From IMG/VR virus record IMGVR_UViG_3300035649_000033, positions 1-40,040 of that record: a stretch of 40,040 nt of DNA. One strand, written 5' to 3'. This document shows positions 2,235 to 22,608 of this stretch, piece by piece; the first letter of the stretch is position 1, and the number at the start of each line of letters is the position of its first letter. The position numbers and the translations under genes are program-made. The stretch is from a virus. The notes below the pieces were generated by a model, which was not told the origin of the DNA, made no database searches, and worked only from the letters and a program-made list of their open reading frames with translations.

Positions 2235-3290
2235 TCAGGCAAGTAGTTCCACGGCTTCTCGGAGTTCCTCGATCTCGACGTGCGTGTAAACTTTATCTGT
2301 CACATCGCCAGAGGCGTGGCCTACAATGCGCTTCACCGTCAGTTTATCCGCCCCGGCACGGTGTTCCATGCTAATGAAAGTATGGCGGGTTGCGTGTGGA
2401 GTAAGTTTACGAACGCCGAGCTGCTCGAGAGCGGGGTAGTAGCAGTTTTCACGGAAATAATTCGCTGTATAAGGGATAAGTTCAATATGCTTGTTGCCTT
2501 GCTTTCCTACAGCTTTCTCTCGACAGAAGATCGTGGGGCCGCCCTTCGCAAGCCAGCGGTCTACATACGGTTGGATTTTGGGATGGATCGGGACAATACG
2601 GTTGCGGCCGGCGTCTGTTTTCAGCCCACCGCGCAAGGTACGTTCAACCGGATCATAGGAAAAAGGTGTCAGTTCCAAAAATTCCGTGATGCGCCAGCCG
2701 GTGTAGCACAGGATCAAAATCAAGTCGGCGTAGGGAATTCCGTTTGCTGCGCCTTTTTCTATTTTTTTGACTTCCAGATCAGTGAAGGCCTCCTTTTTTG
2801 GTGTGTCGTTTTTCGGCAGCACGATGAAGGAGGCATAATTTTTATTGATGATATCGTTCTGCATAGCGTAGCTTTCCAACTGCGTACAAAGAACTTTGAC
2901 CTGGTGCAGCTTGGAATAGGATGCGTTGAGGCCGTCGATAATTGCCTGAAATTCGCCCGTGCGAATGTCTGCGACGCGGCGATCATATAACGGGGCCAGA
3001 TTCTTCCACGCGGCGTTATAGCCGTCTTTGGTGGATTTATCAAGGGTTTGATATTTGACAGTTTTCCATTCGTCGCGCAGCTCTTGGAGGGTCATCTCAG
3101 CCTTCGCTGCAGGAGGCGCGATATGCCACTGGGAGAGCGCGAGCATTGCCTCTTTCCGAGTTTCAAAATAGCCGATTATGTCGCGTTTTATTCGACTACC
3201 GTCGCGCTTCGCGGGCCCGGCGGCGCACCATGGTTTGCGCCGGTGGCCGGAGAGTTTATAGACGGTTCCGTAGCCGTTAGGATTTTTCAT
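2235..3290 (-). CDS. int: Tyrosine recombinase (phage integrase) with N-terminal arm-binding domain
   Basis: C-terminus ...HATRHTFISM...GHASGDVTDKVYTHV (R..HxxR..Y catalytic pattern). The N-terminus NPNGYGTVYKLSGHRRKPW is AP2-like. ATG 3290 follows SD gaggag; the track start at 3308 is a TTG. Confidence 0.9.
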   Translation of the reverse strand: MKNPNGYGTVYKLSGHRRKPWCAAGPAKRDGSRIKRDIIGYFETRKEAMLALSQWHIAPPAAKAEMTLQELRDEWKTVKYQTLDKSTKDGYNAAWKNLAPLYDRRVADIRTGEFQAIIDGLNASYSKLHQVKVLCTQLESYAMQNDIINKNYASFIVLPKNDTPKKEAFTDLEVKKIEKGAANGIPYADLILILCYTGWRITEFLELTPFSYDPVERTLRGGLKTDAGRNRIVPIHPKIQPYVDRWLAKGGPTIFCREKAVGKQGNKHIELIPYTANYFRENCYYPALEQLGVRKLTPHATRHTFISMEHRAGADKLTVKRIVGHASGDVTDKVYTHVEIEELREAVELLA

Positions 3291-3897
3291 GTTGCTGCAT
3301 CTCCTCAATTTGCTGCTTCACATATTCATCCGGCGATATGTTTGTGCATTTAATCTGTAAGTAGGTTTCCAAAGTATCTTCCATCCGCGCCCTCAACGAG
3401 TAATAATTCACCAAGTCGGGATATTCCTGCTCAAATCGATCTACGGCTTCTAATGTCCATTGAACTTCCCGCGGCATCCATAATGCCAAACAGAGATAAA
3501 TGAGGAGGACAATTATAACAGTGATAAGATAGGCGGTCGTCATTGGACGATCTGTCATTGCTTCGTAAACGCAAAGCGCAGTTATTACAGGGCTCATGAG
3601 GCAGAGAAAAGCGTTGAATTTTAAATCATTTTCATACGGAATTAGTTTAATGTTTCGATCTCCTATGCTGAATCCCGCATAGATTATAACGTATGCAAGC
3701 GCAATGAGGCCGGGGCCTATAAAAGCCGCCAATGGAGCTGTTAAAATTATGTCCAACAAGTCTCGCAGCTTCGCCTCTATAGCCCACTCTCCGCGTCCGT
3801 TCGCATAAACCAAAAGCGGAAAAGCGAATCCGATCGCCCAGTCAATCAGAACAATAAAAAACATGAATATTTTCTTTGCTTTTTTTACCTTTTCCAT
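3277..3897 (-). CDS. Multi-pass membrane protein with cytoplasmic C-terminal domain (lysogeny-module accessory gene)
   Basis: At least 4 hydrophobic helices. AT-rich codons. SD gaggag. Its end overlaps the int start by 14 nt. Confidence 0.7.
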   Translation of the reverse strand: MEKVKKAKKIFMFFIVLIDWAIGFAFPLLVYANGRGEWAIEAKLRDLLDIILTAPLAAFIGPGLIALAYVIIYAGFSIGDRNIKLIPYENDLKFNAFLCLMSPVITALCVYEAMTDRPMTTAYLITVIIVLLIYLCLALWMPREVQWTLEAVDRFEQEYPDLVNYYSLRARMEDTLETYLQIKCTNISPDEYVKQQIEEMQQHEKS

Positions 3898-4070
3898 ACA
3901 GATCTCCTCAGTATATTATCAAATAAGAATAATGGAAAAAACTCTACTACTCTATATAACGAAAAAACGCCAAATGTTGTACTTACCCATGAAAGTTTTT
4001 GTATTTTTTAAACTTTTCTACCTTTTTCACAAGACAAAGTCCGAATGTTTGTATAATATTTCAAAGGCTT

Positions 4071-4088
4071 GGCAAACTGCAGTTTGCC
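4071..4088. promoter_or_regulatory. Perfect 18-bp palindrome GGCAAACTGCAGTTTGCC (candidate operator)
   Basis: Read directly. Lies 14 nt downstream of a TATAAT hexamer (4052..4057) and about 100 nt upstream of the XRE gene. Confidence 0.4.
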
Positions 4089-4192
4089 CAAAATATGAAA
4101 GATATCTGTTAATATTTTACTTGTGGATGACATTCACACTTTTTACATATGAAGCGTAAGCAATGCAATAATAGCCCGAGGAGGGTGTTATT

Positions 4193-4426
4193 GTGTATAT
4201 TGTACGCTTAAAGCTCAAAGCAATCCGGAAAGAAAGAGGATACAGTACGAGAGAACTTGAAAAGCGCTCCGATGTGAGCCGCATGCGTATTGAAGCGCTG
4301 GAGAAGGAAACAAACGTGAATATCAAAACCTCTACCTTATGTAAATTGGCAGAAGCTCTGAATGTGCATCCGAATGAACTGATCACCTATACTTATGTTG
4401 AGGGGGATATCAATGAGACACCATGA
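4193..4426 (+). CDS. XRE-family helix-turn-helix regulator
   Basis: LKAIRKERGYSTRELEKRSDVSRMRIEALEKE...STLCKLAEALNVHPNELI. GTG start after SD gaggaggg. Confidence 0.8.
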   Translation: MYIVRLKLKAIRKERGYSTRELEKRSDVSRMRIEALEKETNVNIKTSTLCKLAEALNVHPNELITYTYVEGDINETP

Positions 4427-4613
4427 ACCGACAGTAGAGCTACATAATTTTGACCCGAATGAAGTTTTCTTGAAAAAAATCGCTCAAAACCTTTCGCGCG
4501 CAAATAACGCTGAGGCTGCCGTGATGGCCTTCGGAGAGGAATTAAAAGTTATCAGCAATAATATTGGAGATGATCTCCAGAGCAAGCTTTTGCCGGTCGG
4601 TAAGAGCGTTTAA
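4413..4613 (+). CDS. Small helical protein, translationally coupled to the XRE gene
   Basis: ATG 4413 follows SD gaggggga and overlaps the XRE end by 14 nt. The last 72 nt overlap the convergent CI-like gene. Confidence 0.4.
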   Translation: MRHHEPTVELHNFDPNEVFLKKIAQNLSRANNAEAAVMAFGEELKVISNNIGDDLQSKLLPVGKSV

Positions 4614-4928
4614 ATCAATGTGCAGATCCGAAACAAGCTTTTTTAACATTTGATATATTTCTTCTTCTTTCGCCCCCGAACTGGTTGCGACCGGTTTGGG
4701 GGTGTTTCTTACTTCCTGAAGTTCGTCATTAAGATTCGATACGCCGTATATATCACATAGAGCAAGAAACGTATCTGCATCTGGCTGACGATGACCGCTT
4801 TCCCAACTATAAATTGTTTTATCTGACACTACAATTTTCCTTTCAGAGAGTTTGTCAACTACTTCTTTTACGCTCATGCCAAGAGCCTTTCTCTTACTTT
4901 TAAGAAATAAATAGGCCACATTTCCCAT
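4542..4928 (-). CDS. CI-like repressor (XRE HTH, no S24 peptidase domain)
   Basis: KRKALGMSVKEVVDKLSERKIVVSDKTIYSWESGHRQP. SD gaaggagg. Divergent from the Cro-like gene. Confidence 0.8.
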   Translation of the reverse strand: MGNVAYLFLKSKRKALGMSVKEVVDKLSERKIVVSDKTIYSWESGHRQPDADTFLALCDIYGVSNLNDELQEVRNTPKPVATSSGAKEEEIYQMLKKLVSDLHIDLNALTDRQKLALEIISNIIADNF

Positions 4929-4951
4929 AAATAAACCTCCTTCATTATTTG

Positions 4952-4980
4952 AGTATATGTTTACAAATAGGTGAAGTCAA
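4952..4980 (-). promoter_or_regulatory. Sigma-70-type promoter for the CI-like gene (TTGACT-17-TATACT on the minus strand)
   Basis: The reverse complement of 4952..4980 reads TTGACTtcacctatttgtaaacaTATACT. Confidence 0.55.
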
Positions 4981-5022
4981 GAAAAAATTCTACATTTCGC
5001 GGAAATAAATCGAGAAATTCTA

Positions 5023-5051
5023 TTGACATGCTGCGAAAAGTAGAATATACT
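5023..5051 (+). promoter_or_regulatory. Sigma-70-type early promoter (TTGACA-17-TATACT) overlapped by ATTCTAC operator half-sites
   Basis: TTGACAtgctgcgaaaagtagaaTATACT. ATTCTA(C/T) half-sites at 4987, 5017, 5040 (inverted) and 5060. Confidence 0.6.
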
Positions 5052-5091
5052 TCAAATGGATTCTACGAAACGCAGAAATGAGGTGATAGAA

Positions 5092-5298
5092 ATGACAACG
5101 TGCGAGAACCTTAAAAGAATTATTAAAGGACGCGGAATTACCTATTCGCACATTTCCAAAGTCACAGGAATACCAGTTGATGCAATTTCTAGCTCCTTGA
5201 ACGGGAAGCGTGTGTTGAAAGCCGACGAGTTTATCTCAATATGCACAGCACTGCACATAGACATGGATGCTTTCAGAAAATCTCCAAAGTCCGCATAA
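5092..5298 (+). CDS. Cro-like XRE HTH regulator
   Basis: ATG 5092 follows SD aggtga. The track start 5056 sits 5 nt after the -10 box. HTH: YSHISKVTGIPVDAISSSLNGKR. Confidence 0.75.
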   Translation: MTTCENLKRIIKGRGITYSHISKVTGIPVDAISSSLNGKRVLKADEFISICTALHIDMDAFRKSPKSA

Positions 5299-5337
5299 AA
5301 ATTCCCCCACGGTGGGGGCCGTGAAAAGAAAGGATGG

Positions 5338-5868
5338 TTACCTGAAACACCAAATGATAAGCGCGATGATCACAGCCACAATGATCACAGATACAGGGAG
5401 CAAAAGAATAAAGAATGACGAGCCTAAACGGTGATGTGTTCCGACACGCCTTGGAGATTTCATCAATCTATATAAAACGATCCCGAATATGCCAAGGGAC
5501 AGCAAGATTAACAAGCCTGCGACAAATTTTCTGCCTGCAAAAGGCTTGTTGGAAGCTTCTGTTACCGGATGCCAAACAGATTTTGCTGAGCTTTCTTCCT
5601 GTGTTTCTTCCTCATACCAGGCATCGGTGTAATCCATTCCTGCGGTCTTTTCTAAGTTTTCTTCATAGTTGGAATCAAACGGGCAAACGCCGTCTGGATG
5701 CCCGTGCGCAGGAAAACCATGATGATAATGATACATCCCCATCTGATGGTCATAATGGCCGCCCCGTGAATCAGTACGGCCCGAATGCCCAAAAACCGTC
5801 AAGGGGAGCAACGTACAGAACAGCAGCGCACAGGCGGTTATAGCGGCACATTTTTTGCACAATCGCAT
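5338..5868 (-). CDS. Secreted/membrane-anchored His-rich YHYH-motif protein
   Basis: Signal-like N-terminus, then GHSGRTDSRGGHYDHQMGMYHYHHGFPAHGHPDG, an acidic linker and two C-terminal TM helices. Confidence 0.75.
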   Translation of the reverse strand: MRLCKKCAAITACALLFCTLLPLTVFGHSGRTDSRGGHYDHQMGMYHYHHGFPAHGHPDGVCPFDSNYEENLEKTAGMDYTDAWYEEETQEESSAKSVWHPVTEASNKPFAGRKFVAGLLILLSLGIFGIVLYRLMKSPRRVGTHHRLGSSFFILLLPVSVIIVAVIIALIIWCFR

Positions 5869-6012
5869 GCTCTCAATCCTTCCCTATTAACTTTCTATTT
5901 TTAACCCGCGCGAGCGGGTATGGCAGAAGCGCGAAATCTGTGATTTCACGCTGATTCTAGCACAATCTTACCACGATTTGGACTTCATGTAAATAAACAA
6001 GAGGTGATCTAC

Positions 6013-8650: not shown

Positions 8651-9379
8651 ATGTACCTACAGAAAACCTACCGGGCCGGGAAAACCATCGAAATCCAGAA
8701 GCTTGCCATCCGCCGGTATCCCCGCAGCGCACGGCAGAAGAGGCACAGCCCCACCCCAGAGGCGATGGCAGCATATAACAAAAAGCTTGCAGAAAGGGAA
8801 CTGGCCCGGCTGCTCAATGAGAATTTCGGCCCGGGTGATCTGAGCATTATGGGAACCTATCGCAAAGCGGAACGCCCCACGCCGGAACAGGCGAAGAAAG
8901 ATCGGGAGAAGTTTTTGCGCAAGCTTCGGGAACACTTCCGCCGTCGCGGAGAGGAACTGCGTTATGTGGCGGTGACTGCCTACGGCGAGCGCGGCGCAAT
9001 CCATCATCACCTGGTGATCAGTGGGATGGATTACCGGGAGCTGCAAGCAATGTGGCCACATGGACGGGTGATTGTATCGCCGCTGGACGAAACGGGCAAT
9101 TACTGGCGGCTTGCATATTACTACGTCAACCAGTTGCATTCATCTCCTCTGACCGGGGAGGAAATCAAAGGGAAGCGGTGGAGTTGCAGCAAAAACCTGC
9201 GCCGCCCGCCGCCGAAAACAGAGGTCAAGGAGGCCCGAACGTGGCGGGATGAGCCGCGACCGCTCAATGGCTACTACATAGACAAGGACAGTGTCGAAAA
9301 CGGCATCTGCCCGCTAACCGGGGAGCCTTACCAGTTTTACAGGATGGTAAAAATCGCGCCGGAAAGGAGAAAGCGATGA
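8651..9379 (+). CDS. HUH-type rolling-circle replication initiator-like protein
   Basis: LSIMGTY (motif-1-like), GAIHHHLVISG (HUH motif) and NYWRLAYYYVNQ (Tyr motif) occur in canonical order. Confidence 0.6.
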   Translation: MYLQKTYRAGKTIEIQKLAIRRYPRSARQKRHSPTPEAMAAYNKKLAERELARLLNENFGPGDLSIMGTYRKAERPTPEQAKKDREKFLRKLREHFRRRGEELRYVAVTAYGERGAIHHHLVISGMDYRELQAMWPHGRVIVSPLDETGNYWRLAYYYVNQLHSSPLTGEEIKGKRWSCSKNLRRPPPKTEVKEARTWRDEPRPLNGYYIDKDSVENGICPLTGEPYQFYRMVKIAPERRKR

Positions 9380-9481: not shown

Positions 9482-9730
9482 ATGGGATACCTGAACGATA
9501 AGCACGGAATGACAATGATCGGTGCAACCCCTCCCGGCACCTGCCCGGAGTGCGCCGTTGCCCACGCGCCTGATCAGCCGCACAACCGGGACAGTCTATG
9601 CTATCAGTACAAATTTTATGATGTCCACGGCAGATGGCCGACATGGGAGGATGCAATGGCCCACTGTCCGCAGGAGGTAAAGGAAATATGGATAGTGGAA
9701 CTGAAAAAGCGCGGCGTGAAAGTGGGCTGA
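9482..9730 (+). CDS. Hypothetical Cys/His-containing small protein
   Basis: ATG 9482 follows SD gaggag. GTCPECAVAHAPDQPHNRDSLCYQYKF. Confidence 0.55.
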   Translation: MGYLNDKHGMTMIGATPPGTCPECAVAHAPDQPHNRDSLCYQYKFYDVHGRWPTWEDAMAHCPQEVKEIWIVELKKRGVKVG

Positions 9731-10356
9731 GAATACCAATGACTACTTTTGACCGCATGACGACCGCCGAATACCGCGTCTATCTCCAAAGCCTTGAGAG
9801 CGGGCAATCGTCCAAACCATCCAAAAAAATCGGAGCGTTGCCCGCATCCCGTTTCGGCCGCATGTCCGCCGCGGAATACCGCGCCCTGCTCAAAGCCGAA
9901 CAGCAGCCGAGCGGGCCGCAGCCCAAAGAGAAGGAAAAAACCCGAAAAAAAGCGCTCCCGCCCATCCCGACTGAGAGCGAAGAGCAGCGGGCTGTGATGG
10001 AATGGGCAGAAGCTGCGAGCGGACGGTGGCCAGAACTGCGGTTGCTCTACCATGTGCCAAATGAGGGCCAGCGGAGCATGGCCACCGGTGGGCGGCTGCG
10101 CGCGGAAGGCTTGAAAAGCGGCGTGCCGGATCTCTGCCTGCCGTCTGCGCACGGGAAATATCACGGACTGTACATCGAGATGAAGCGCACACAGGGCAGC
10201 AAGACCACGCCGGAACAGAAGGAATGGTTGGAGGCCCTGGAGGTGGAAGGATACAAAACGGCGCTGTGCAGGGGCGCGGATGCGGCGATTGAAATCATTG
10301 CGGATTACCTTGCACTGCCAAAATCGAGAAACGGAGGCGATGGGAATGACCTATGA
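9688..10356 (+). CDS. VRR-NUC domain nuclease
   Basis: ESEEQRAVMEW...HVPNEG...GVPDLCLP...GLYIEMKR...PEQKEWLEAL..GY. Start is uncertain: 9688 follows SD aggagg, and 9739 is the alternative. Confidence 0.8.
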   Translation: MDSGTEKARRESGLRIPMTTFDRMTTAEYRVYLQSLESGQSSKPSKKIGALPASRFGRMSAAEYRALLKAEQQPSGPQPKEKEKTRKKALPPIPTESEEQRAVMEWAEAASGRWPELRLLYHVPNEGQRSMATGGRLRAEGLKSGVPDLCLPSAHGKYHGLYIEMKRTQGSKTTPEQKEWLEALEVEGYKTALCRGADAAIEIIADYLALPKSRNGGDGNDL

Positions 10357-11410: not shown

Positions 11411-11666
11411 CACTACGCATCCTTGGGCTCTTCGCTGGGCGCAGCGCCTTGCGAATGACATCCACCAGTCCCCGCAATTTGTTATGGAGTTAGAGCAACT
11501 GACAGCCAGAATGCCGGAAGCGCCGAGGGAAGACATGCGTACCGCCCTGTCATGGATGGTTGCAGCATATTATGAACATCTGAAGGGCCGATGGACCGAA
11601 GAGCGGACGAAAAAGCAGATCAGAGAAGCAGAAGAGCTGATGCAGAGAGGGGAGCTGATAAAGTGA
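11313..11666 (+). CDS. Hypothetical small protein (start uncertain: 11313, 11358 or 11484)
   Basis: Stop is GTGA-coupled to the helicase-MTase start. The C-terminal 60 aa look helical and protein-like. The N-terminus overlaps the upstream gene. Confidence 0.4.
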   Translation: MVGGGYSTISASNGRMNILTGASDNSTSFKQGDTTHPWALRWAQRLANDIHQSPQFVMELEQLTARMPEAPREDMRTALSWMVAAYYEHLKGRWTEERTKKQIREAEELMQRGELIK

Positions 11667-14179
11667 GAACCTATGAAGAATTTTTACGGTCTAAAATGGA
11701 GCTTGCCCCGAAGAGCGGGTTTGAGATAGATCCGTCGGAGATCAATCCCATCTTGAAACCGCACCAGCGGGATGCGGTGCAATGGGCGGTACGCGGCGGC
11801 CGGCGGGCATTGTTCGAGAGGTTCGGCCTCGGAAAGACCGTACAGGAGCTGGAATGGTGCCGAATCGTTACGGAGCGTCAGGGAGGACAGGCCCTACTGG
11901 TGTTGCCTCTGGGCGTGCGGCAGGAGTTTACCCACGACGCGCAGGAGCTGTTGCACATTGCCCCGCCGCAATATGTCCGCACGATGGAGGAAGTCCTACA
12001 GACGGAGGGACCGCTCCTGATGACCAACTATGAGCGGGTGCGGGACGGGGATATAGACCCGTCATATTTTACAACCGCTTGCCTCGATGAGGCGGCAGTG
12101 CTGCGCTCCTTCGGGAGCAAAACCTACCAGACGTTCCTTGACAAATTTAAGGGTGTGCCGTACAAGCTCGTAGCGACGGCCACGCCCGCGCCGAACCGGT
12201 ACAAGGAGCTGATCCACTATGCAGGGTATCTGGAAGTGATGGACACCGGGCAGGCCCTCACGCGGTTTTTCAAACGGGACAGCACGAAAGCGAATAACCT
12301 GACGCTTTACCCGCACAAAGAAGAGGAATTCTGGCTGTGGGTATCCTCCTGGGCGCTGTATATCTCGAAACCGTCCGATCTTGGCTACGATGATACCGGA
12401 TATGACCTGCCGCCGCTGGATGTGCGTTATCACAAGCTGTGCATGGACGCCGCGCCGGTCGTTGGCAAGGATGGGCAGGAGCATTTTCAGCGGGAGGCCT
12501 CTGTCTCCCTCAAGGACGCGGCTGCGGTCAAGCGAGAGAGCATCGCCACTCGCGTGGCAAAGGCGGCGGAGATCGTCGACGATAACCCGCAGGAGCATTT
12601 CATCCTCTGGCACGACTTGGAAGCGGAGCGGCACGCGATCAAAAAAGCTCTGCCGGAAGCCGTGGAAATCTACGGCTCGCAGGAGCTCGACGAGCGGGAA
12701 CGCAATACCATTGACTTTTCTAATGGGGAAATCCAACTGTTGGCCACGAAAAAGGAACTATCCGGATCAGGCTGCAACTTCCAGCGGCACTGCCACCGGG
12801 CGATTTTCGTCGGGATCGACTATGATTTTAACGACTTCATTCAGGCGATCCACCGTATTTACCGATTTTTACAGGGCGAGCGGGTTGTGATTGATATCAT
12901 TTACATGGATGCAGAAAGCGAGATTCTCAGGGCTCTGCAGCGCAAATGGGCGCAATACGATGAGATGACGGCAAAGATGGCCGAGATCGTCAAACAGTAC
13001 GGATTGTCGGGAACCAATATGATGGAAAAGTTGCAGCGCAGCATCGGTGTGGAGCGAAAAGAGATAAAAGGGGATCATTTCACCGCGGTGCAGAACGATT
13101 GCATTTTAGAATCGGAGCGTATGCCGGAGAACAGCATTGACCTGATTGTGACGAGCATCCCATTTTCCAACCATTATGAGTATACGGCGAGCTACAACGA
13201 CTTTGGGCACAATGAGGATACAAAGCGCTTTTTTGAGCAGATGGACTATCTGTCCCCGCAGCTGCTCCGGATCCTGCGTCCTGGACGGGTGATGGCGGTA
13301 CACGTCAAAGACCGGGTGCTGTTCGGCAACGCAACAGGAACGGGCATGCCGACGATGGAACCGTTTCACGCGATGTGCATTGAGCACTATATGCGCCACG
13401 GGTTTATGTACTTTGGGATGATAACGGTAATCACAGATGTGGTGCGGGAGAACAACCAGACCTACCGGTTGGGATGGACAGAGCAGTGCAAGGACGGAAC
13501 AAAGATGGGCGTCGGTTGCCCAGAATACATCCTTCTCTTTCGCAAGCTGCCGACGGACCGCAGCAAAGCCTATGCGGATACACCGGTGACGCGGACAAAG
13601 GAGGATTATCCGTTGGCGCAGTGGCAGATCGACGCACACGGCTTCTGGCGCAGCAGCGGGAACCGCCGGATGACGCGGGAGGAGATCAGTGCCATGCCGA
13701 TCGATCAGATCCAGCGCATTCAGAAGCAATTCTCCCGTTCGCATGTCTATGACTACATCCAGCATATCGGGTTCACAGAAGCATTGGGCGAAGCGGGAAG
13801 GCTGTCGAAAACCTTCATGACGGCGCCACCCGCGAGCTGGCACCCGGACGTATGGGACGACGTCAACCGTATGCGCACGCTCAACACGACGCAATCTGCC
13901 CGGCGGCAGCAGATGCACGTCTGCCCGCTGCAGATCGATATTGTACAGCGGCTGATTAACCGGTATTCCAACAAGGGGGACGTGGTGCTGGATCCGTTTG
14001 CAGGCCTGTTCACAGTGCCGGAGGAGGCAATTAAAATGGGCCGGGAAGGATACGGGATCGAACTGAATGTGGGATACTTTGCAGATGGTGTGGAATATTG
14101 CCGGTCAGCAGAAGCGGAGGTAGACCAGCCGACGCTGTTTGATTTCATAAAAAGCCAAAACGGGAGGGAAGCGGGTTGA
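11663..14179 (+). CDS. SNF2/DEAD-like helicase fused to an N6-A/N4-C type DNA methyltransferase domain
   Basis: Helicase motifs: PHQRDAV, GLGKT, LDEAAVL, QAIHRIYRFLQ. MTase motifs: DLIVTSIPFSNHYEY (motif IV variant) then VLDPFAGLFTVPEEAIKMGREGYGIELN (motif I), i.e. beta-class order. Confidence 0.85.
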   Translation: MRTYEEFLRSKMELAPKSGFEIDPSEINPILKPHQRDAVQWAVRGGRRALFERFGLGKTVQELEWCRIVTERQGGQALLVLPLGVRQEFTHDAQELLHIAPPQYVRTMEEVLQTEGPLLMTNYERVRDGDIDPSYFTTACLDEAAVLRSFGSKTYQTFLDKFKGVPYKLVATATPAPNRYKELIHYAGYLEVMDTGQALTRFFKRDSTKANNLTLYPHKEEEFWLWVSSWALYISKPSDLGYDDTGYDLPPLDVRYHKLCMDAAPVVGKDGQEHFQREASVSLKDAAAVKRESIATRVAKAAEIVDDNPQEHFILWHDLEAERHAIKKALPEAVEIYGSQELDERERNTIDFSNGEIQLLATKKELSGSGCNFQRHCHRAIFVGIDYDFNDFIQAIHRIYRFLQGERVVIDIIYMDAESEILRALQRKWAQYDEMTAKMAEIVKQYGLSGTNMMEKLQRSIGVERKEIKGDHFTAVQNDCILESERMPENSIDLIVTSIPFSNHYEYTASYNDFGHNEDTKRFFEQMDYLSPQLLRILRPGRVMAVHVKDRVLFGNATGTGMPTMEPFHAMCIEHYMRHGFMYFGMITVITDVVRENNQTYRLGWTEQCKDGTKMGVGCPEYILLFRKLPTDRSKAYADTPVTRTKEDYPLAQWQIDAHGFWRSSGNRRMTREEISAMPIDQIQRIQKQFSRSHVYDYIQHIGFTEALGEAGRLSKTFMTAPPASWHPDVWDDVNRMRTLNTTQSARRQQMHVCPLQIDIVQRLINRYSNKGDVVLDPFAGLFTVPEEAIKMGREGYGIELNVGYFADGVEYCRSAEAEVDQPTLFDFIKSQNGREAG

Positions 14180-15099
14180 AAAAACTGACGCATCTGTCCC
14201 TATTCTCCGGGATCGGCGGACTTGACCTCGCTGCCGAGCGGGCCGGCCTCCAGACGGTAGGGCAGTGCGAATTTGCAGATTACCCGTATAAGGTACTGTG
14301 CAAGCATTGGCCGGATGTCCCCAAATGGCGAGATATCCGCACGCTGACAGGGGAGGATTTTCATGCACGAACAGGATTGCGAACAGTTGACGTTCTTTCA
14401 GGGGGATTCCCCTGTCAACCGTTCTCCGTTGCCGGGAAGCGCAGAGGCGCGGAAGATGACCGTTACCTCTGGCCGGAAATGCTTAGAGTTATCAAAGAGC
14501 TGCGGCCCGCTTGGGTTATTGGAGAAAATGTTGCTGGAATCGTCAATATGGCGCTCGACACGGTGCTATCTGAATTGGAAGCCGAAGGCTACGAAACAAG
14601 GGCGTTTATTGTTCCAGCTTGCGGTGTCGATGCCCCACACCGAAGAGACAGGGTCGCAATTGTGGCTCGGCACAATGACGGCAAGCCAAACGGGAGGAAA
14701 CCACTCGTTGCGATCCCCAGAGAGGATGAAGGGAAGAACGCCAAGCCCTGCGGAGTTTGTTATGATGTGGCCCACCCCGAGGGCGAAGGAATCGGGGGAT
14801 TATCAGTACAGTGCAGGGAATCACAACAAGCCGATACCGACGCTTTCTGGCGCCGTAAAATTGTGGACAACTCCTACGGCCGCAGATTCGGTAGGCACAT
14901 CTGGCGGGAACAATTCGCGCAGTCTCAGGACGGATGTTGGTGGTCAGTTGAACCCGACGTGGGTCGAGTGGCTCATGGGATTCCCCACCGGGTGGACAGA
15001 CTTAGATGCCTAGGAAATGCGGTGGTTCCAGCACAGTTCTATCCGATTTTCAACGGGATAGCGCAAGCGGAATTACTTGGAAAGGAGGCACAAAAATGA
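14176..15099 (+). CDS. dcm: DNA cytosine-5 methyltransferase
   Basis: FSGIGG (I), GGFPCQPFS (IV), ENV (VI), HRRDRV (VIII), RLRCLGNAVVP (X). TTG start is coupled to the upstream TGA. Confidence 0.85.
   Translation: MKKLTHLSLFSGIGGLDLAAERAGLQTVGQCEFADYPYKVLCKHWPDVPKWRDIRTLTGEDFHARTGLRTVDVLSGGFPCQPFSVAGKRRGAEDDRYLWPEMLRVIKELRPAWVIGENVAGIVNMALDTVLSELEAEGYETRAFIVPACGVDAPHRRDRVAIVARHNDGKPNGRKPLVAIPREDEGKNAKPCGVCYDVAHPEGEGIGGLSVQCRESQQADTDAFWRRKIVDNSYGRRFGRHIWREQFAQSQDGCWWSVEPDVGRVAHGIPHRVDRLRCLGNAVVPAQFYPIFNGIAQAELLGKEAQK
14363..15013 (+). CDS. 216-codon ORF embedded in the +1 frame of the C5-MTase gene (candidate overprinted gene)
   Basis: SD gggagga lies 5 nt before the ATG. Repeated LW..T..A / MWPTPRA / LWTTPTA motifs; C-terminus LNPTWVEWLMGFPTGWTDL. 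GC3 shifts to this frame (see findings). Confidence 0.45.
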   Translation: MHEQDCEQLTFFQGDSPVNRSPLPGSAEARKMTVTSGRKCLELSKSCGPLGLLEKMLLESSIWRSTRCYLNWKPKATKQGRLLFQLAVSMPHTEETGSQLWLGTMTASQTGGNHSLRSPERMKGRTPSPAEFVMMWPTPRAKESGDYQYSAGNHNKPIPTLSGAVKLWTTPTAADSVGTSGGNNSRSLRTDVGGQLNPTWVEWLMGFPTGWTDLDA

Positions 15100-15998: not shown

Positions 15999-16571
15999 AT
16001 GGTGGAAAATCGGGATTGGAAACGGATCAAAACCGAATACATCACCACCGACACGAGCTACCGAAAACTGGCCGCCAAATACGACGTCCCGATGTCTACC
16101 CTTACCAGAATCGCTATCAAGGAAAAGTGGGTGGAAGCCCGCGAACGGTACAAAAACAAGGTGGTAACAAAAACGGTGGAGAAAATGGCGGCAAAAGAGG
16201 CCAATAAACTGGCGAAGCTCCGCACGATGACAGATAGTATGGTTGACGTTGTGGAGGGAATTTTTAACGATCCTGAACAATTTCAGCGGCATTTGGTACA
16301 AACGCGTGATGGGCAGATTTGGGATGTGGAAGAGCGGGTTTTCAAAAAGATAGATACAAAAGCGATTAAAGATATCACTGCGGCCCTAAAGGATCTTTCT
16401 TCCGTCCTGCGCAACGTCTACGACCTGCCGACGGTGCAGGAGCAGGCTGCCATGGACAACGCGGCCTCCCGCCTGCAGCTTGACCGCGAAAAGGCGGCGG
16501 TGGGCCAAACTGACGACAGTGAAACGGGCGTGGTGATGCTCGCACCGGTGGAAGGCGATGCAGATGGCTAA
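15999..16571 (+). CDS. terS: Terminase small subunit
   Basis: DWKRIKTEYITTDTSYRKLAAKYDVPMSTLTRIAIKEKW (HTH) immediately upstream of TerL. Confidence 0.75.
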   Translation: MVENRDWKRIKTEYITTDTSYRKLAAKYDVPMSTLTRIAIKEKWVEARERYKNKVVTKTVEKMAAKEANKLAKLRTMTDSMVDVVEGIFNDPEQFQRHLVQTRDGQIWDVEERVFKKIDTKAIKDITAALKDLSSVLRNVYDLPTVQEQAAMDNAASRLQLDREKAAVGQTDDSETGVVMLAPVEGDADG

Positions 16572-18012
16572 TATCGTTTGGCAGCCGCAGCCGAAGCAGG
16601 CGGCCTTCATGGCCCGGCCGGAGTACGAATGCCTATATGGCGGCGCGGCTGGCGGCGGGAAGAGTGACGCCCTACTGGCGGAAGCGCTACGCCAAGTGCA
16701 TATTTCGCACTATCGGGCAATTATCTTTCGCAAAACGTACCCACAGTTATCAGAACTGATTGACCGCAGCCGGGCACTCTATGGCCCAGCGTTCCCCCGC
16801 GCGCGGTACAACCAGACGGAGCACTGCTGGACTTTCCCTAGCGGGGCAAAGGTTTATTTCGGGTCTATGCAGTACACGAAAGACCGCATCAACTATCAGG
16901 GAAAGCGGTATGATTTCATCGCGTTTGACGAGCTGACGCACTTCACATGGGACGAATACAGCTATATGTTCTCCCGTAACCGGCCGAGCGGGCCGGGGAC
17001 GCGGGTCTATATGCGGGCAAGCACCAACCCGGGCAGCATCGGCCACGGGTGGGTGAAAGACCGATTTATTACCGCCGCACCGCCGCTGACACCAGTAGAA
17101 GACAATTACGAAGTGCCGGATCCATCCGGGAGGCTTATCAAGCTTAGGCGCCGGCGAATCTTTGTGCCAAGCACCGTATTTGACAATCAGGAGCTGCTGC
17201 GCAATGATCCGAACTATCTTGCCAATCTGGCCATGCTGCCGGAGGCCGAGCGCAATGCGCTGCTCTACGGATCATGGGATAGCTTCGACGGGCAGGTCTT
17301 CCGCGAGTGGCGCAACGATCCGCGGCATTACGATGACCAGCGCTGGACGCATGTTATTGATCCATTTCCAATCCCCAAGCACTGGCGCATTTATCGGGGC
17401 TTTGATTTTGGCTACGCAAAGCCGTTTTCCGTGGGCTGGTTCGCGGTGGATGAAGACGGCCGCATCTATCACATCAAAGAGTATTACGGCTGCACGGGCA
17501 CGCCGAACACTGGAATCAAACTGAACCCCGTAGAGATCGCGGCCGGTATCCGGCAGATGGAGGCGGAAGACCCGGTGTTAAAGGGCAAGCAGATTGTGGG
17601 CATTGCTGACCCGTCCATCTTTGACGAGAGCCGCGGGGAGAGTGTGGCGCGCATGATGCAGCGGTCGCCCAATTTCATTTACTGGCAGGGTGGCGACAAC
17701 ACGCGACTGGCCGGGAAGATGCAGTTTCACTACCGGCTGGCATTTGACAGCGAAGGACTGCCCATGTTTCAGGTGTTCAGCACCTGCAAGCATTTCATCC
17801 GCACGATCCCGACGCTGGTCTACGACGAAAGCAAGGTGGAGGACATCAACACAGACCAGGAGGATCACATCTACGATATGTGCCGGTACGTGATGATGGA
17901 GCACCCGCTTTCGCCGCGCATGAACGAGGACACCCGCAAGCTAGGCAACGATCCGCTGGATCTGCTGCAAGATTCGCAGCAGGCTGATAAATATCGATTT
18001 TACAGGATATAA
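16564..18012 (+). CDS. terL: Terminase large subunit
   Basis: Walker A YGGAAGGGKS; Walker B-like DFIAFDELTH; C-terminal nuclease-like region. Confidence 0.9.
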   Translation: MANIVWQPQPKQAAFMARPEYECLYGGAAGGGKSDALLAEALRQVHISHYRAIIFRKTYPQLSELIDRSRALYGPAFPRARYNQTEHCWTFPSGAKVYFGSMQYTKDRINYQGKRYDFIAFDELTHFTWDEYSYMFSRNRPSGPGTRVYMRASTNPGSIGHGWVKDRFITAAPPLTPVEDNYEVPDPSGRLIKLRRRRIFVPSTVFDNQELLRNDPNYLANLAMLPEAERNALLYGSWDSFDGQVFREWRNDPRHYDDQRWTHVIDPFPIPKHWRIYRGFDFGYAKPFSVGWFAVDEDGRIYHIKEYYGCTGTPNTGIKLNPVEIAAGIRQMEAEDPVLKGKQIVGIADPSIFDESRGESVARMMQRSPNFIYWQGGDNTRLAGKMQFHYRLAFDSEGLPMFQVFSTCKHFIRTIPTLVYDESKVEDINTDQEDHIYDMCRYVMMEHPLSPRMNEDTRKLGNDPLDLLQDSQQADKYRFYRI

Positions 18013-18024
18013 GGAGGACATAAC

Positions 18025-20067
18025 ATGCCCGGAAAGAAACAGAGAAAACAGGAAACACCGATGCCGGAGAAGCAGCCGGAACGGATGCCTAAAGAACCAT
18101 TGGCAGAGCCACTGCACAGCATGGAGGAGGAAGCAGAGCTTGCGGCGCCCCTCATGGAAGAAGAGTTGCCAGAAGGTACGCTCGGAGTTGCCCTTGGCCC
18201 GGAGATGCCTATAGGCGCGCTTGGAAAGATCGGTCAGGAGCAGGTACGCGAAGCGGCTGTTACACTTAAAAAGTATAAGGACGGCAAGGCCAATCTGGAA
18301 GCCCGTATCATTGCCAATGAACAATGGTGGAAGATGCGGCACTGGGATCTCATCAAAGGGAAAGATGACGCAGGGAAATCCCGCCCGGAGCCAGCCTCTG
18401 CATGGCTGTTCAACTCCGTTGCCAACAAGCATGCGGACGCGATGGACAACTACCCGGAGCCGAGCGTGCTGCCGCGCGCGCGGGACGATGAGCAGGCGGC
18501 GAAGCAGCTTTCCGCGATCCTGCCGGTCGTATTGGAACAAAACCAGTATGAGCAAGTCTACTCGGATACCTGGTGGTATAAGCTCAAAACCGGGACAGGC
18601 GTTAAGGGCGTGTTCTGGGATCCGCGCAGGTCGGACGGCCTAGGGGATATCGATGTGCGCAAGGTGGATATTCTCAACCTCTTTTGGGAGCCGGGGATCA
18701 CCGACATCCAGAAATCCCGCAATCTTTTTCACGTGGAGCTGATCGACAACGACCTGCTCATGCAGCAGTACCCGTTTTTGCATTTGGATGCAAGCCAGCC
18801 GAGCGTGCAGGTGAACAAATACGTTTATGACGACAGTGTGGACACATCTGGAAAGTCCGCCGTGATTGACTGGTATTATAAGCTCTACAACGGCGTGCGG
18901 GATGTGCTGCACTACTGCAAATTTGTAAACGACGTAGTGCTTTACGCCTCCGAAAATGACCCGGAGTATGCCGAGCGGGGTTTCTACGATCATGGGAAAT
19001 ACCCCTTTGTGTTTGATACGCTCTTCGAGGAAGAGGGCACGCCCTGCGGGTTTGGGTACATCGACGTAATGAAGGACACGCAGATGTACATTGATAAGAT
19101 GGGGCAGATCGTGATCGAGAACGCCCTGCAAGCGGCCCGTAAGCGGTATTTTATCCGTTCGGACGGCGGCGTGAATGAAAAGGAATACGCAGATCTCCAA
19201 AAGGATTTTGTCCATACGACAGGAAATCTGGGAGAAGACAGCATCCGGGAGATCATGGTCTCCCCGCTGCCCTCTATCTGCGTCGAAATTCTCAACAACA
19301 AAATCCAGGAGCTCAAGGAGACGAGCGGGAACCGGGACTTTTCTCAGGGCGGCACGACCTCCGGCGTAACGGCGGCCTCGGCAATTGCCGCGTTGCAGGA
19401 AGCCGGGAGCAAGCTCTCGCGCGACATGATCAAGAGCGCATACCGTGCCTTCACGCAGGAGTGCTACTTGGTGCTGGAGCTCATGCGGCAATTTTATGAC
19501 GAACCGCGTACCTTCCGGATCACCGGTGAGGGTGGCGGGCAGCAGTTTGAGACATTTGATAATTCCGGGATCCGGCCGCAGGCGCAGGGGCGGGATTTTG
19601 GCCTTGATCTGGGCGAGCGGGTACCGGTTTTTGATATCAAGGTTGCGGCGCAGAAAAAGAGCCCGTTTTCAAAGATTTCGCAGAATGAGCTTGCGAAGGA
19701 ACTCTATGGCGCCGGGATGTTCAACCCGGAAATTGCCGATCAGGCGCTGATTTGCCTCGATATGATGGACTTCGAAGGCAAGGACAAGGTGGTGCAAAAG
19801 GTTTCGCAAAACCAGACGCTTTTGCAGATGGTACAGCAGTTGCAGACGCAGATGCTCCAGATGGCGCAGATCATCGACGCGCAGAATGGAACAACGATTG
19901 CACAGGGAATGGCGGCGGAGCAAACGGGAATGCAGGGGCAGCCAATGCCGGGAGAAGGCGCAGGTGAAGGACAGACGCAGGTAAACGCGCTGGGTGGAGA
20001 ACTGCCCGAGAGCGGCGTTACCAATCAGGCACGGCAGCGCACGGCGCAGATAGCAAATCCGCAGTAA
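18025..20067 (+). CDS. Portal protein
   Basis: 680 aa directly after TerL. ANLEARIIANEQWWKMRHW portal-type N-terminal helix. Q/G-rich flexible C-terminus. Confidence 0.85.
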   Translation: MPGKKQRKQETPMPEKQPERMPKEPLAEPLHSMEEEAELAAPLMEEELPEGTLGVALGPEMPIGALGKIGQEQVREAAVTLKKYKDGKANLEARIIANEQWWKMRHWDLIKGKDDAGKSRPEPASAWLFNSVANKHADAMDNYPEPSVLPRARDDEQAAKQLSAILPVVLEQNQYEQVYSDTWWYKLKTGTGVKGVFWDPRRSDGLGDIDVRKVDILNLFWEPGITDIQKSRNLFHVELIDNDLLMQQYPFLHLDASQPSVQVNKYVYDDSVDTSGKSAVIDWYYKLYNGVRDVLHYCKFVNDVVLYASENDPEYAERGFYDHGKYPFVFDTLFEEEGTPCGFGYIDVMKDTQMYIDKMGQIVIENALQAARKRYFIRSDGGVNEKEYADLQKDFVHTTGNLGEDSIREIMVSPLPSICVEILNNKIQELKETSGNRDFSQGGTTSGVTAASAIAALQEAGSKLSRDMIKSAYRAFTQECYLVLELMRQFYDEPRTFRITGEGGGQQFETFDNSGIRPQAQGRDFGLDLGERVPVFDIKVAAQKKSPFSKISQNELAKELYGAGMFNPEIADQALICLDMMDFEGKDKVVQKVSQNQTLLQMVQQLQTQMLQMAQIIDAQNGTTIAQGMAAEQTGMQGQPMPGEGAGEGQTQVNALGGELPESGVTNQARQRTAQIANPQ

Positions 20068-21549: not shown

Positions 21550-22608
21550 ATGAAAACCAAGTTCAAATTGGATCTACAGCTCTTCGCTATGGGCGTGGCA
21601 GCGGCGCAGGCACAGTTGGACCTGCAGATGTTCGCCACGCAGACGACGCTGCTCAACTCTTCCGGGAACGACCTTTCGCCGGAAATGAAGACTTTTTATG
21701 ACAAAACACTGATCACGCTGGCTGAACCGGCTCTGGTGCATGACCAGTTCGGGCAGAAGCGGCCGATCCCCAAAAACGGCGGCAAGACGATTGAATTCCG
21801 CAGGTTTTCCGCACTGCCCAAGGCGTTGACACCAATCACGGAAGGCGTGACACCCGCAGGCAACAAACTCAACGTCTCTGCGATGACCGCCACGGTCAAC
21901 CAGTACGGCGATTATATCGAGCAGTCAGATATTCTGCAGCTGACCGCGATTGATAACACCGTGGTAGAAGCCACCAAAAAGCTAGCTGCACAGGCGGGCG
22001 CGACGATGGATACCGTTGTGCGCAACGAGCTTTGCGGAGGCACCAACGTGATGTACGCGCCGAAATCGGACGGCACAGCAGTCACTACCAGGGCGACGCT
22101 GGACGCAACCTGTAAGGTGACGGTGGATATGATTTTCCGCGCGGCGGCGCTTTTAAAATCCATGAACGCGCAGAAGATCGACGGCAGCTATGTTGCAATC
22201 GTGCATCCGTTCGTGGCCTACGATATCATGATGGGCGCGGGAGATGCGTGGGTGGATATCAACAAGTACGCCAATGCCGAGAAGATCTTTAATGGCGAAA
22301 TTGGAAAGATCGGCGGCGTACGTTTTGTAGAAACGACAGAGGCAAAAATCTGGAAGGGCGCAGGGTGCCCGAGTGGCCTTGCTGTGTTTGCAACTCTCGT
22401 GCTCGGCGCAGATGCCTATGGTGTGACGGAGATTGAGGGCGGCGGCCTGCAGCACATCGTCAAGCAGCTCGGCTATGGCAACGATCCACTTAACCAGCGC
22501 AGCTCCGTCGGCTGGAAAGGAATTAAGGTCGCGAAGCGCCTAGTAGAGGAATACATGGTGCGCATCGAATCCTGCTCCTCCTACAGCACGACGGCGGAAG
22601 CGAACTAA
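21550..22608 (+). CDS. Major capsid protein (N4-gp56-type HK97 fold)
   Basis: TIEFRRFSALPKALTPITEGVTPAGNKL...TATVNQYGDYIEQSDIL pattern. N-terminal LDLQLFA leader. Confidence 0.9.
   Translation: MKTKFKLDLQLFAMGVAAAQAQLDLQMFATQTTLLNSSGNDLSPEMKTFYDKTLITLAEPALVHDQFGQKRPIPKNGGKTIEFRRFSALPKALTPITEGVTPAGNKLNVSAMTATVNQYGDYIEQSDILQLTAIDNTVVEATKKLAAQAGATMDTVVRNELCGGTNVMYAPKSDGTAVTTRATLDATCKVTVDMIFRAAALLKSMNAQKIDGSYVAIVHPFVAYDIMMGAGDAWVDINKYANAEKIFNGEIGKIGGVRFVETTEAKIWKGAGCPSGLAVFATLVLGADAYGVTEIEGGGLQHIVKQLGYGNDPLNQRSSVGWKGIKVAKRLVEEYMVRIESCSSYSTTAEAN

Follow-up and report, generated by a model that had tools for sequence, protein, structure and literature searches.

A second gene nested in the +1 frame of a phage C5 DNA methyltransferase gene most likely encodes the small subunit of a two-chain enzyme

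The viral record IMGVR_UViG_3300035649_000033, analysed here from position 1 to 40,040 (the window, to whose 40,040 nt all coordinates refer), carries a Dcm-type C5 DNA methyltransferase gene with a second open reading frame (ORF) lying entirely inside it in the +1 frame. Throughout, we call the outer Dcm ORF alpha and the nested ORF beta. Related loci keep both frames open, conserve the beta protein as well as its start site, and show a switch of the frame under selection within the overlap. Codon permutations, constraint on synonymous sites and a conserved Shine-Dalgarno (SD) sequence with its ATG all point to translation of both frames, a conclusion that is supported at the level of sequence comparison. 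Our reading, to which we assign a probability of roughly 0.72, is that beta is a real and widely conserved second gene, and most likely the small subunit of a two-polypeptide C5 methyltransferase read from one stretch of DNA. The features on which this reading is built are the following.

Alpha ORF: 14176..15099, plus strand; TTG start, 307 aa, 34.3 kDa; large catalytic domain of a C5 DNA methyltransferase, with motifs I-VIII, a spacer and motif X.
Alpha motif I: 14203..14220, plus strand; FSGIGG, binding of S-adenosylmethionine (AdoMet); (nearly) invariant in the alpha alignment (A3).
Alpha motif IV: 14401..14427, plus strand; GGFPCQPFS with the catalytic Cys; beta reads GDSPVNRSP from these bases.
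Alpha motif VIII: 14638..14652, plus strand; HRRDR; here the conserved core of alpha ends and selection passes to the beta frame.
Alpha motif X: 15010..15030, plus strand; LGNAVVP; begins at the beta stop and leads into the C-terminal helix.
Beta ORF: 14363..15013, plus strand; ATG start, 216 aa, 23.7 kDa; +1 frame, wholly inside alpha; proposed small subunit.
Beta SD: 14350..14357, plus strand; GGGGAGGA, 5 nt ahead of the ATG at 14363.
Region A: 14363..14649, plus strand; first ~95 beta residues, over alpha motifs IV-VIII; alpha is dominant and beta adds site-specific constraint.
Region B: 14650..14931, plus strand; variable beta modules of the type [LM]W-x-T-P-x-A; alpha is here an unconserved R/G-rich spacer.
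Motif-IX-like beta C-terminus: 14939..15004, plus strand; GGQLNPTWVEWLMGFPTGWTDL, near-invariant in the beta family; alpha reads EPDVGRVAHGIPHRVDRL from these bases.

An earlier note on this DNA had described a 216-codon ATG-initiated ORF in the +1 frame of an intact Dcm gene, and its description of the locus proved accurate. The Dcm frame contains FSGIGG, GGFPCQPFS, ENV, HRRDR and LGNAVVP, the strong SD sequence stands where it was seen, and the codons that had been quoted from the Dcm frame (cga aga gac agg; aga ctt aga tgc cta gga) are present. The three spaced LW/MW motifs are found in beta (LWLGTMTA at 14660-14683, MWPTPRA at 14765-14785 and LWTTPTA at 14861-14881), as is the quoted C-terminus, which is also cited in the form LNPTWVEWLMGFPTGWTDL; the beta translation further contains the stretches LLFQLAVSMPHTEETGSQLWLGTMTASQTGGNHSLR and TDVGGQLNPTWVEWLMGFPTGWTDLDA. 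An in-frame TGA at 14345-14347 bounds the beta frame upstream. No internal promoter was found between the alpha and beta starts, the only promoter-like site on the plus strand being at 14009-14037.

The codon-based tests for dual coding were carried out on 69 unique loci, which are phylogenetically related, so that per-locus p-values are not independent; the contrasts are those between segments within the same sequences. In the window gene the open stretch of the +1 frame is 221 codons long, against a mean of 118 in 300 synonymous-codon permutations of alpha (p=0.010), and the +2 frame shows no excess (p=0.997). Over all loci the +1 frame is longer than in the permutations of alpha at p<0.01 in 88% of cases, the +2 control having a median p of 0.82. 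When beta is shuffled synonymously, 4-10 stops arise in the alpha frame; none is observed, and p<=0.01 in every locus. The start of beta is conserved as well: the first beta-frame ATG lies 15 codons before the F of FPCQ in 64 of the 69 loci, and an SD-like motif, often AAGGAG, precedes it in 65. Conservation of the ORF, its SD and its ATG among related Dcm genes, which the earlier note had proposed as a test, is thus borne out.

Synonymous variation in the Dcm frame is suppressed within the overlap, as had also been predicted. For pairs of loci with less than 65% alpha identity, we determined the share of identical codons at positions where the alpha residue is the same, with the following results by segment.

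Alpha-only N-terminal part: 0.417
Past the beta stop: 0.476
Region A (14366-14650): 0.555
SD and ATG: 0.665
Region C (14930-15011, motif IX): 0.776

Columns with a codon identity of at least 0.8 number 3 of 65 outside the overlap, 20 of 75 in region A and 12 of 20 in region C, and the corresponding Mann-Whitney p-values for synonymous constraint are 0.006 for region A and 6e-7 for region C. Within region A, four-fold degenerate codons are 100% fixed at 14383, 14386, 14392, 14533 and 14617, as is the three-fold degenerate Ile codon at 14539, and the His codon that creates the beta ATG is fixed as CAT. The sites constrained by beta in this region are EQLTFF (14381-14398), MTVTSGRKC (14456-14482) and a predicted beta-hairpin (14561-14629).

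The phase of substitutions indicates which frame is selected in which segment. Between 14378 and 14650 substitutions fall mostly at alpha position 3; in both 14650-14930 and 14930-15011 they fall mostly at beta position 3 (alpha position 1). Selection thus acts on the alpha frame as far as motif VIII and on the beta frame from there to the beta stop. Amino-acid conservation matches this result, alpha being near-invariant in motifs I-VIII and at its C-terminus with near-zero conservation in between (aa ~165-255), and beta having conserved islands at WPTP/TPTA and a near-invariant GGQLNPxWVEWLMGFPxGWTDL. The earlier note had placed a jump of the synonymous-site signature exactly at 14363 on the strength of G/C-ending codons. 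Its counts (40/62 for the Dcm codons upstream, 28/62 for the next 62 and 40/62 for the +1 frame over the latter) are exact, and the fall of G+C at third positions in the Dcm frame, from 0.65 to 0.47, is real. The 65% of the +1 frame was rejected as evidence because third positions of that frame coincide with first positions of the Dcm frame, and these are rich in G+C throughout (0.63 even where the N-terminal part is Dcm-only). The switch itself is located at about 14650, past motif VIII, and the Dcm frame dominates from 14363 to that point.

These data bear directly on the explanation that beta is a shadow ORF, open and seemingly conserved merely through conservation of Dcm, with its database homologues being errors of gene callers. 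Gene callers do pick one frame or the other, alpha does dominate the substitutions in region A, and conserved Dcm motifs account for much of the similarity of beta in that region. Between about 14650 and 15011, however, it is beta that is conserved and alpha that is not, and alpha synonymous sites are constrained in the overlap. In addition, highly variable insertions in a phage of 41% G+C (Bacteroides phage BKO1-TP3, with 329 open +1 codons) leave the +1 frame open, and the beta motif LNPDWVECLMGFPIGWTD of Paenibacillus phage Bloom overlaps a part of alpha that is not conserved, the C-terminal motif of alpha (WEP...RVGRIKALGNAVNP) being located further downstream, past the beta stop. The latter arrangement implies that the beta motif is conserved for its own sake. 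We regard a shadow ORF as scarcely credible. Every one of the tests proposed in the earlier note that was run came out in favour of real dual coding, which is accordingly supported.

The nested layout is widespread. Among 80 viral contigs chosen by homology to alpha (50-88% identity), a choice unbiased toward an intact beta, both frames are kept in 77; the three exceptions have one stop in alpha, one stop in beta and rearranged frames, respectively. The beta frame opens at a constant place in the viral loci, 20 codons before the F of FPCQ. Among 80 species-representative bacterial and archaeal genomes chosen by homology to beta, the full nested layout is present at 65 loci, and at four more alpha is open across beta. 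These loci belong to Oscillospiraceae, Paenibacillus, Brevibacillus, Coriobacteriia, Bacteroidota, Desulfobacterota, Chlorobiota, Verrucomicrobiota, Planctomycetota, bacteria of the candidate phyla radiation and two archaeal metagenome-assembled genomes (MAGs), among others. The pair occurs in phages of Bacillota, Pseudomonadota, Actinomycetota, Bacteroidota and Cyanobacteriota. In six annotated phages (Escherichia phage ESSI2_ev129, Klebsiella virus KpV2811, Gordonia phage CheeseTouch, Mycobacterium phage Rhynn, Synechococcus phage Yong-M2-251 and the already mentioned Bacteroides phage) the beta match is displaced by 1 (mod 3) relative to the annotated Dcm coding sequence, and the pair is also kept in phages of Paenibacillus, Lacticaseibacillus and Pseudomonas.

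Homologues of the +1 translation are likewise abundant, with 4529 relatives in a protein collection clustered at 90%, most of them 180-300 aa long, covering beta in full and having no Pfam domain. A profile built from 115 beta relatives retrieves 37,615 cluster representatives (50% identity) at E<=1e-3, 20,065 at E<=1e-10 and 2,665 at E<=1e-30. In the contigs behind these relatives that were inspected, the Dcm frame is present too, one base upstream in phase. The stand-alone phage proteins with WPTP repeats and an EWLMGFPxGW end to which the earlier note likened beta are therefore largely this same nested ORF called instead of the Dcm frame, and no independent family.

The annotation of the pair has gaps. 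At the window locus, the source annotation calls alpha alone (P0262, identical) and leaves beta uncalled. Elsewhere beta is called in place of alpha, as 'hypothetical', 'Mte8-like' or 'DNA methyltransferase'. For Pseudomonas phage PMG1 (L088, 1240-2001), GenBank names beta 'DNA methyltransferase, similar to Mte8-like protein' and the Dcm frame, open at 1191-2021, is uncalled. The label 'Mte8-like' in records of enterobacterial phages appears to denote beta; in the literature on 'Mte8' we found neither functional information nor a paper explaining the name. Only records of Paenibacillus larvae phages list both genes (e.g. BLOOM_56 and the nested BLOOM_57), and the papers on these phages list two cytosine methyltransferase genes with the nesting passed over without comment. 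Our literature searches for a described nested gene in a phage Dcm gene found nothing.

What beta does may be approached from what alpha has and lacks. Its single chain holds motifs I, IV, VI (ENV) and VIII of PF00145-type enzymes, and motif X, in which L279 and N281 are invariant and G280, A282, V283, V284 and P285 near-invariant in the alpha alignment. Absent from alpha are the structured variable region, or target recognition domain (TRD), and the motif IX that monomeric enzymes have between motifs VIII and X. The PF00145 match is limited to aa 5-177 (1.5e-39) and ends at profile position 169 of 324; M.HhaI aligns to aa 4-168, and phrog_363 covers alpha from end to end (5.5e-82). The AlphaFold2 (AF2) model of alpha, from 107 sequences, has a confident core at aa 1-170, a stretch at aa 171-283 with a per-residue confidence (pLDDT) of 27-39 and no secondary structure, and a C-terminal helix at 286-306 with pLDDT 65-91, so that the motif X plus helix characteristic of C5 enzymes is found. 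With Foldseek, about 173 columns of this model, corresponding to the core only, match the large domain of M.HhaI and M.HaeIII. An alpha from an E. coli phage gave no match to the prophage Dcm structures 3g7u and 3lx6.

For beta, no model of Pfam or NCBIfam was matched, and a search of Protein Data Bank (PDB) sequences with the beta profile yielded a chance match to RpoD only (E=1.5). It does match phrog_1008, which is named 'DNA methyltransferase' (2.7e-36). The AF2 model of beta, from 115 sequences, has a hairpin at residues 69-89 (strands 69-76 and 82-89) and a few helices, at a confidence too low to be of use for searching by fold. A dipeptide 'TL' resembling that of canonical TRDs was considered in beta and dropped; the Thr is unconserved, and only L..AV.h[WFY]PTP is kept.

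The earlier note had named no function for beta, for which we propose the following mechanism. One mRNA would be read twice, from the TTG at 14176 to give alpha and from the ATG at 14363 to give beta, with the start of alpha probably coupled to the stop of the upstream gene for an SNF2/N6_N4-methylase. Alpha would be the large domain, with a spacer of ~110 residues, unconserved and probably unstructured, where a normal enzyme has its small domain. The residues of beta past ~95, with their variable WPTP-type modules and motif-IX-like end, would correspond to the part of a monomeric enzyme that lies between motifs VIII and X. Beta may dock on alpha via its N-terminal part and supply the missing small-domain function, namely motif IX and, presumably, target recognition, and methylation would then require both chains, by analogy with the E. 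coli enzyme M.EcoHK31I. We infer the association of the chains, the need for both, and the reading of the DNA sequence by beta rather than alpha; the DNA-reading modules are placed in beta because of where selection acts. It is conceivable, at a little under even odds in our estimation, that target recognition is encoded by the nested beta, through its WPTP-type units and motif IX, across a very large family, and that the 'variable region' of alpha is only a disordered by-product spacer. If so, specificity predictions from alpha alone would be wrong for thousands of phage methyltransferases, and the pair would rank with the oldest and most widely distributed long nested gene pairs that are known from bacterial viruses.

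Support for beta being part of the enzyme comes from the movement of motifs between the two frames. The LPTPTA modules of Gordonia phage CheeseTouch belong to the +1 frame, but its LNAAFAEWMMGLPDGHVT stands in the alpha frame directly before motif X; it is identified as motif IX because PF00145 aligns there through position 316 of 324. The window beta matches this in-frame motif IX of CheeseTouch gp88 in both BLASTP (E=0.001) and hhalign (E=4.5e-4). In a few rare relatives (L122 at 1486-2592, P0152 and P0188) alpha stops past motif VIII; beta is extended in frame and takes in motif IX, an EP...RV segment and motif X. Motifs IX and X thus occur on either chain in different lineages, as is expected if the two chains are one enzyme.

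Several points weigh against our reading. The relatedness of the loci has been mentioned, and selection on beta is less well supported in region A, where the chance of encountering no +1 stop is 0.16 per locus. The link between the beta C-terminus and motif IX is an alignment of 18-47 residues with E about 1e-3, and beta is left unmatched by PF00145. For a mosaic assembled by hand from alpha 1-160, beta 98-214 and alpha 277-307, the PF00145 score was 126.5 bits vs 136.8 for alpha by itself, and the two C-terminal constructs both went undetected; calling the end of beta motif IX therefore finds no support in Pfam. The AF2 model of beta has a mean pLDDT of 58.8 and a predicted template modelling (pTM) score of 0.30. 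Lastly, for M.EcoHK31I the literature puts the predicted TRD in alpha.

Some of the same points would suit a translated and real beta whose function is unrelated to methylation, for instance a regulator or an anti-defence factor linked to Dcm by shared DNA only: the missing Pfam, NCBIfam and PDB matches, the poor AF2 model, the shortness of the motif IX similarity and the lack of any gain from the Pfam mosaic. Such a function would not predict that motifs IX and X change frame between lineages, as they do in the Gordonia phage and in the rare relatives, nor that alpha is without motif IX and without a conserved or structured variable region; moreover, M.EcoHK31I, which has the same layout, needs its beta (PMC2836561). 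We hold an unrelated function to be unlikely.

The order of the mosaic, with motifs I-VIII, WPTP modules, IX and X, is the canonical one, and could also be produced by two programmed frameshifts that make a single polypeptide from frame 0 (I-VIII), the +1 frame (variable region and IX) and frame 0 again (X), which would be a canonical monomeric Dcm. Occasional in-frame fusions (P0026, L147, L060 and L138) are in line with this. On the other hand, the alpha frame contains no slippery X XXY YYZ heptamer, only short homopolymers, and beta is open for 95 codons upstream of the junction, back to a conserved SD and ATG, while alpha is open through the spacer; both exceed chance and neither is needed for frameshifting. 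The end of beta relative to motifs IX and X varies among lineages, and the chains of M.EcoHK31I are separate polypeptides (PMC2836561). Frameshifting is very improbable in our judgement, and we retain the reading of beta as a separate small subunit.

A number of individual loci deserve mention. The 964-nt contig P0026 encodes a 218-aa protein, 98% identical to the window, that joins alpha ...DDRYLWP directly to beta QLWLGTMTA..., a fusion that corresponds to a deletion of about 190 nt merging the two frames. In L060 (1360-1377) and L138 (2061-2082), an (AG)9-11 tract is located at the end of the beta module region, and the frames are rearranged around it, with alpha fused to motif IX or beta fused to motif X; the tract may shift frames by slippage, or may be an assembly error. 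Three unrelated bacterial genomes (L098 at ~1530-1545, L153 at ~1528-1540 and L168 at ~1548-1556) have a 6-nt insert with an in-frame stop just before the codon for the catalytic Cys of motif IV. Two of them share the insert TTGACC (CC-TTGACC-ATGCCA, read as P-stop-P-C-Q) and one has GTAGGC (TAG); beta stays open in all three, gaining two residues. These inserts may reflect recurrent inactivation of alpha or a leaky-stop control of it. The locus L040 (764-1345) has one beta stop just before the WPTP modules and an alpha that differs between motifs VI and VIII (GENVPGILRIAAADVV...), a subtype of alpha to which L168 also belongs. A gene resembling phosphoadenosine phosphosulfate reductase adjoins the pair in several phages that are unrelated to one another: in a prophage of a gut MAG (L001, 1901-2817), in phage C72C1 (L005, 2153-2827) and in a Bacteroides phage (L092, 2875-3537); no such gene was seen beside the pair in the window.

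Regarding its setting, the 862-aa product of the gene upstream of alpha (11591-14179) is a fusion in which an SNF2-related domain is joined to an N6_N4 DNA methylase domain. The TTG start of alpha shares bases with the TGA stop of this gene (GTTGA), an overlap that suggests translational coupling of the two methyltransferases. The window as a whole (1-40040) looks like a whole temperate phage, has a stretch of low G+C (0.42) at 4001-6000, and contains the following further genes.

Integrase: 2235-3308, minus strand
Replication protein: 8651-9379
VRR-NUC protein: 9634-10356
Large terminase: 16558-18012
P22-like portal: 18025-20067
Capsid protein: 21550-22608
ORF of 2569 aa: 29170-36879

The layout was described for one E. 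coli enzyme in 1995, and the window gene alone is therefore no new kind of system. What our analysis adds is scale and annotation: the nested pair is present in most of the relatives sampled, in phages and prophages of many phyla, and, as judged from these comparisons, the nested layout is the rule across a very large and poorly annotated family of phage methyltransferases. If beta is needed for activity, cloning or prediction from the Dcm ORF alone will fail or mislead, and one subunit will systematically be missed by gene finders that do not allow nested genes. The pair also provides a clean and data-rich test case for methods that detect overlapping genes.

The closest known system is M.EcoHK31I (YGGCCR), a C5 methyltransferase of E. 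coli that is naturally a heterodimer (Lee, Kam & Shaw 1995; Fung et al. 2006, following the accounts in PMC2836561 and PMC3404938). Its beta lies inside alpha in another frame, with motifs I-VIII and X on alpha and motif IX on beta; removal of the beta starts by changes silent in the alpha frame abolishes methylation, which is restored by beta in trans, and the first ~42 beta residues are used for associating with alpha (PMC2836561, PMC3404938). The window pair is alike in layout, as taken from the published description: beta is wholly nested in alpha in another frame, it has an internal start, whose ATG position and SD are conserved in most of the loci compared, and alpha has motifs I-VIII and X while beta has a motif-IX-like end, as far as an alignment with E about 1e-3 can tell. 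The sizes of beta are similar too, the expression plasmids of M.EcoHK31I being named M38 and C23 (PMC2836561) and the chains of the window 34.3 kDa for alpha and 23.7 kDa for beta. As the architecture is the same, we classify the window pair as a nested alpha/beta C5 methyltransferase of an already known type. The N-terminal part of beta serves association and not catalysis in M.EcoHK31I, and by analogy may have the same role in the window. The two differ in that the variable region of the window alpha is unconserved and predicted to be unstructured, the conserved modules being in beta, unlike the assignment made for M.EcoHK31I. Furthermore, M.EcoHK31I is part of a restriction-modification system, whereas the window gene is an orphan methyltransferase in a temperate phage.

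Another two-subunit C5 methyltransferase is M.AquI (CYCGRG), which has a natural split in the variable region into chains with motifs I-VIII and IX-X that must combine (PMC3404938). Rare relatives of the window gene (L122, P0152 and P0188) resemble it, with an alpha ending past motif VIII and a beta running through IX and X. In contrast, the window alpha runs on to motif X, which keeps the large domain on a single chain, and beta lies wholly inside alpha and stops just before motif X. Engineered fragments of M.HhaI, M.SssI and other enzymes, split in the interval from motif VIII to the TRD, can also assemble into active enzyme (PMC3404938). They are like the window pair in consisting of a large-domain and a small-domain fragment, and unlike it in being artificial, sharing no DNA and having motif X on the C-terminal fragment.

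Finally, the pair may be compared with the overprinted genes of small viruses, which have long same-strand overlaps, one dominant frame per segment and synonymous constraint (PMC8227390, PMC3494269). The window pair shares the long same-strand overlap, the segment-wise dominance and the detectable synonymous constraint. Unlike in those viruses, its second frame appears to encode an ancient component of the same enzyme and not a novel accessory protein, and the pair is spread over phages of many bacterial phyla rather than confined to one virus family.

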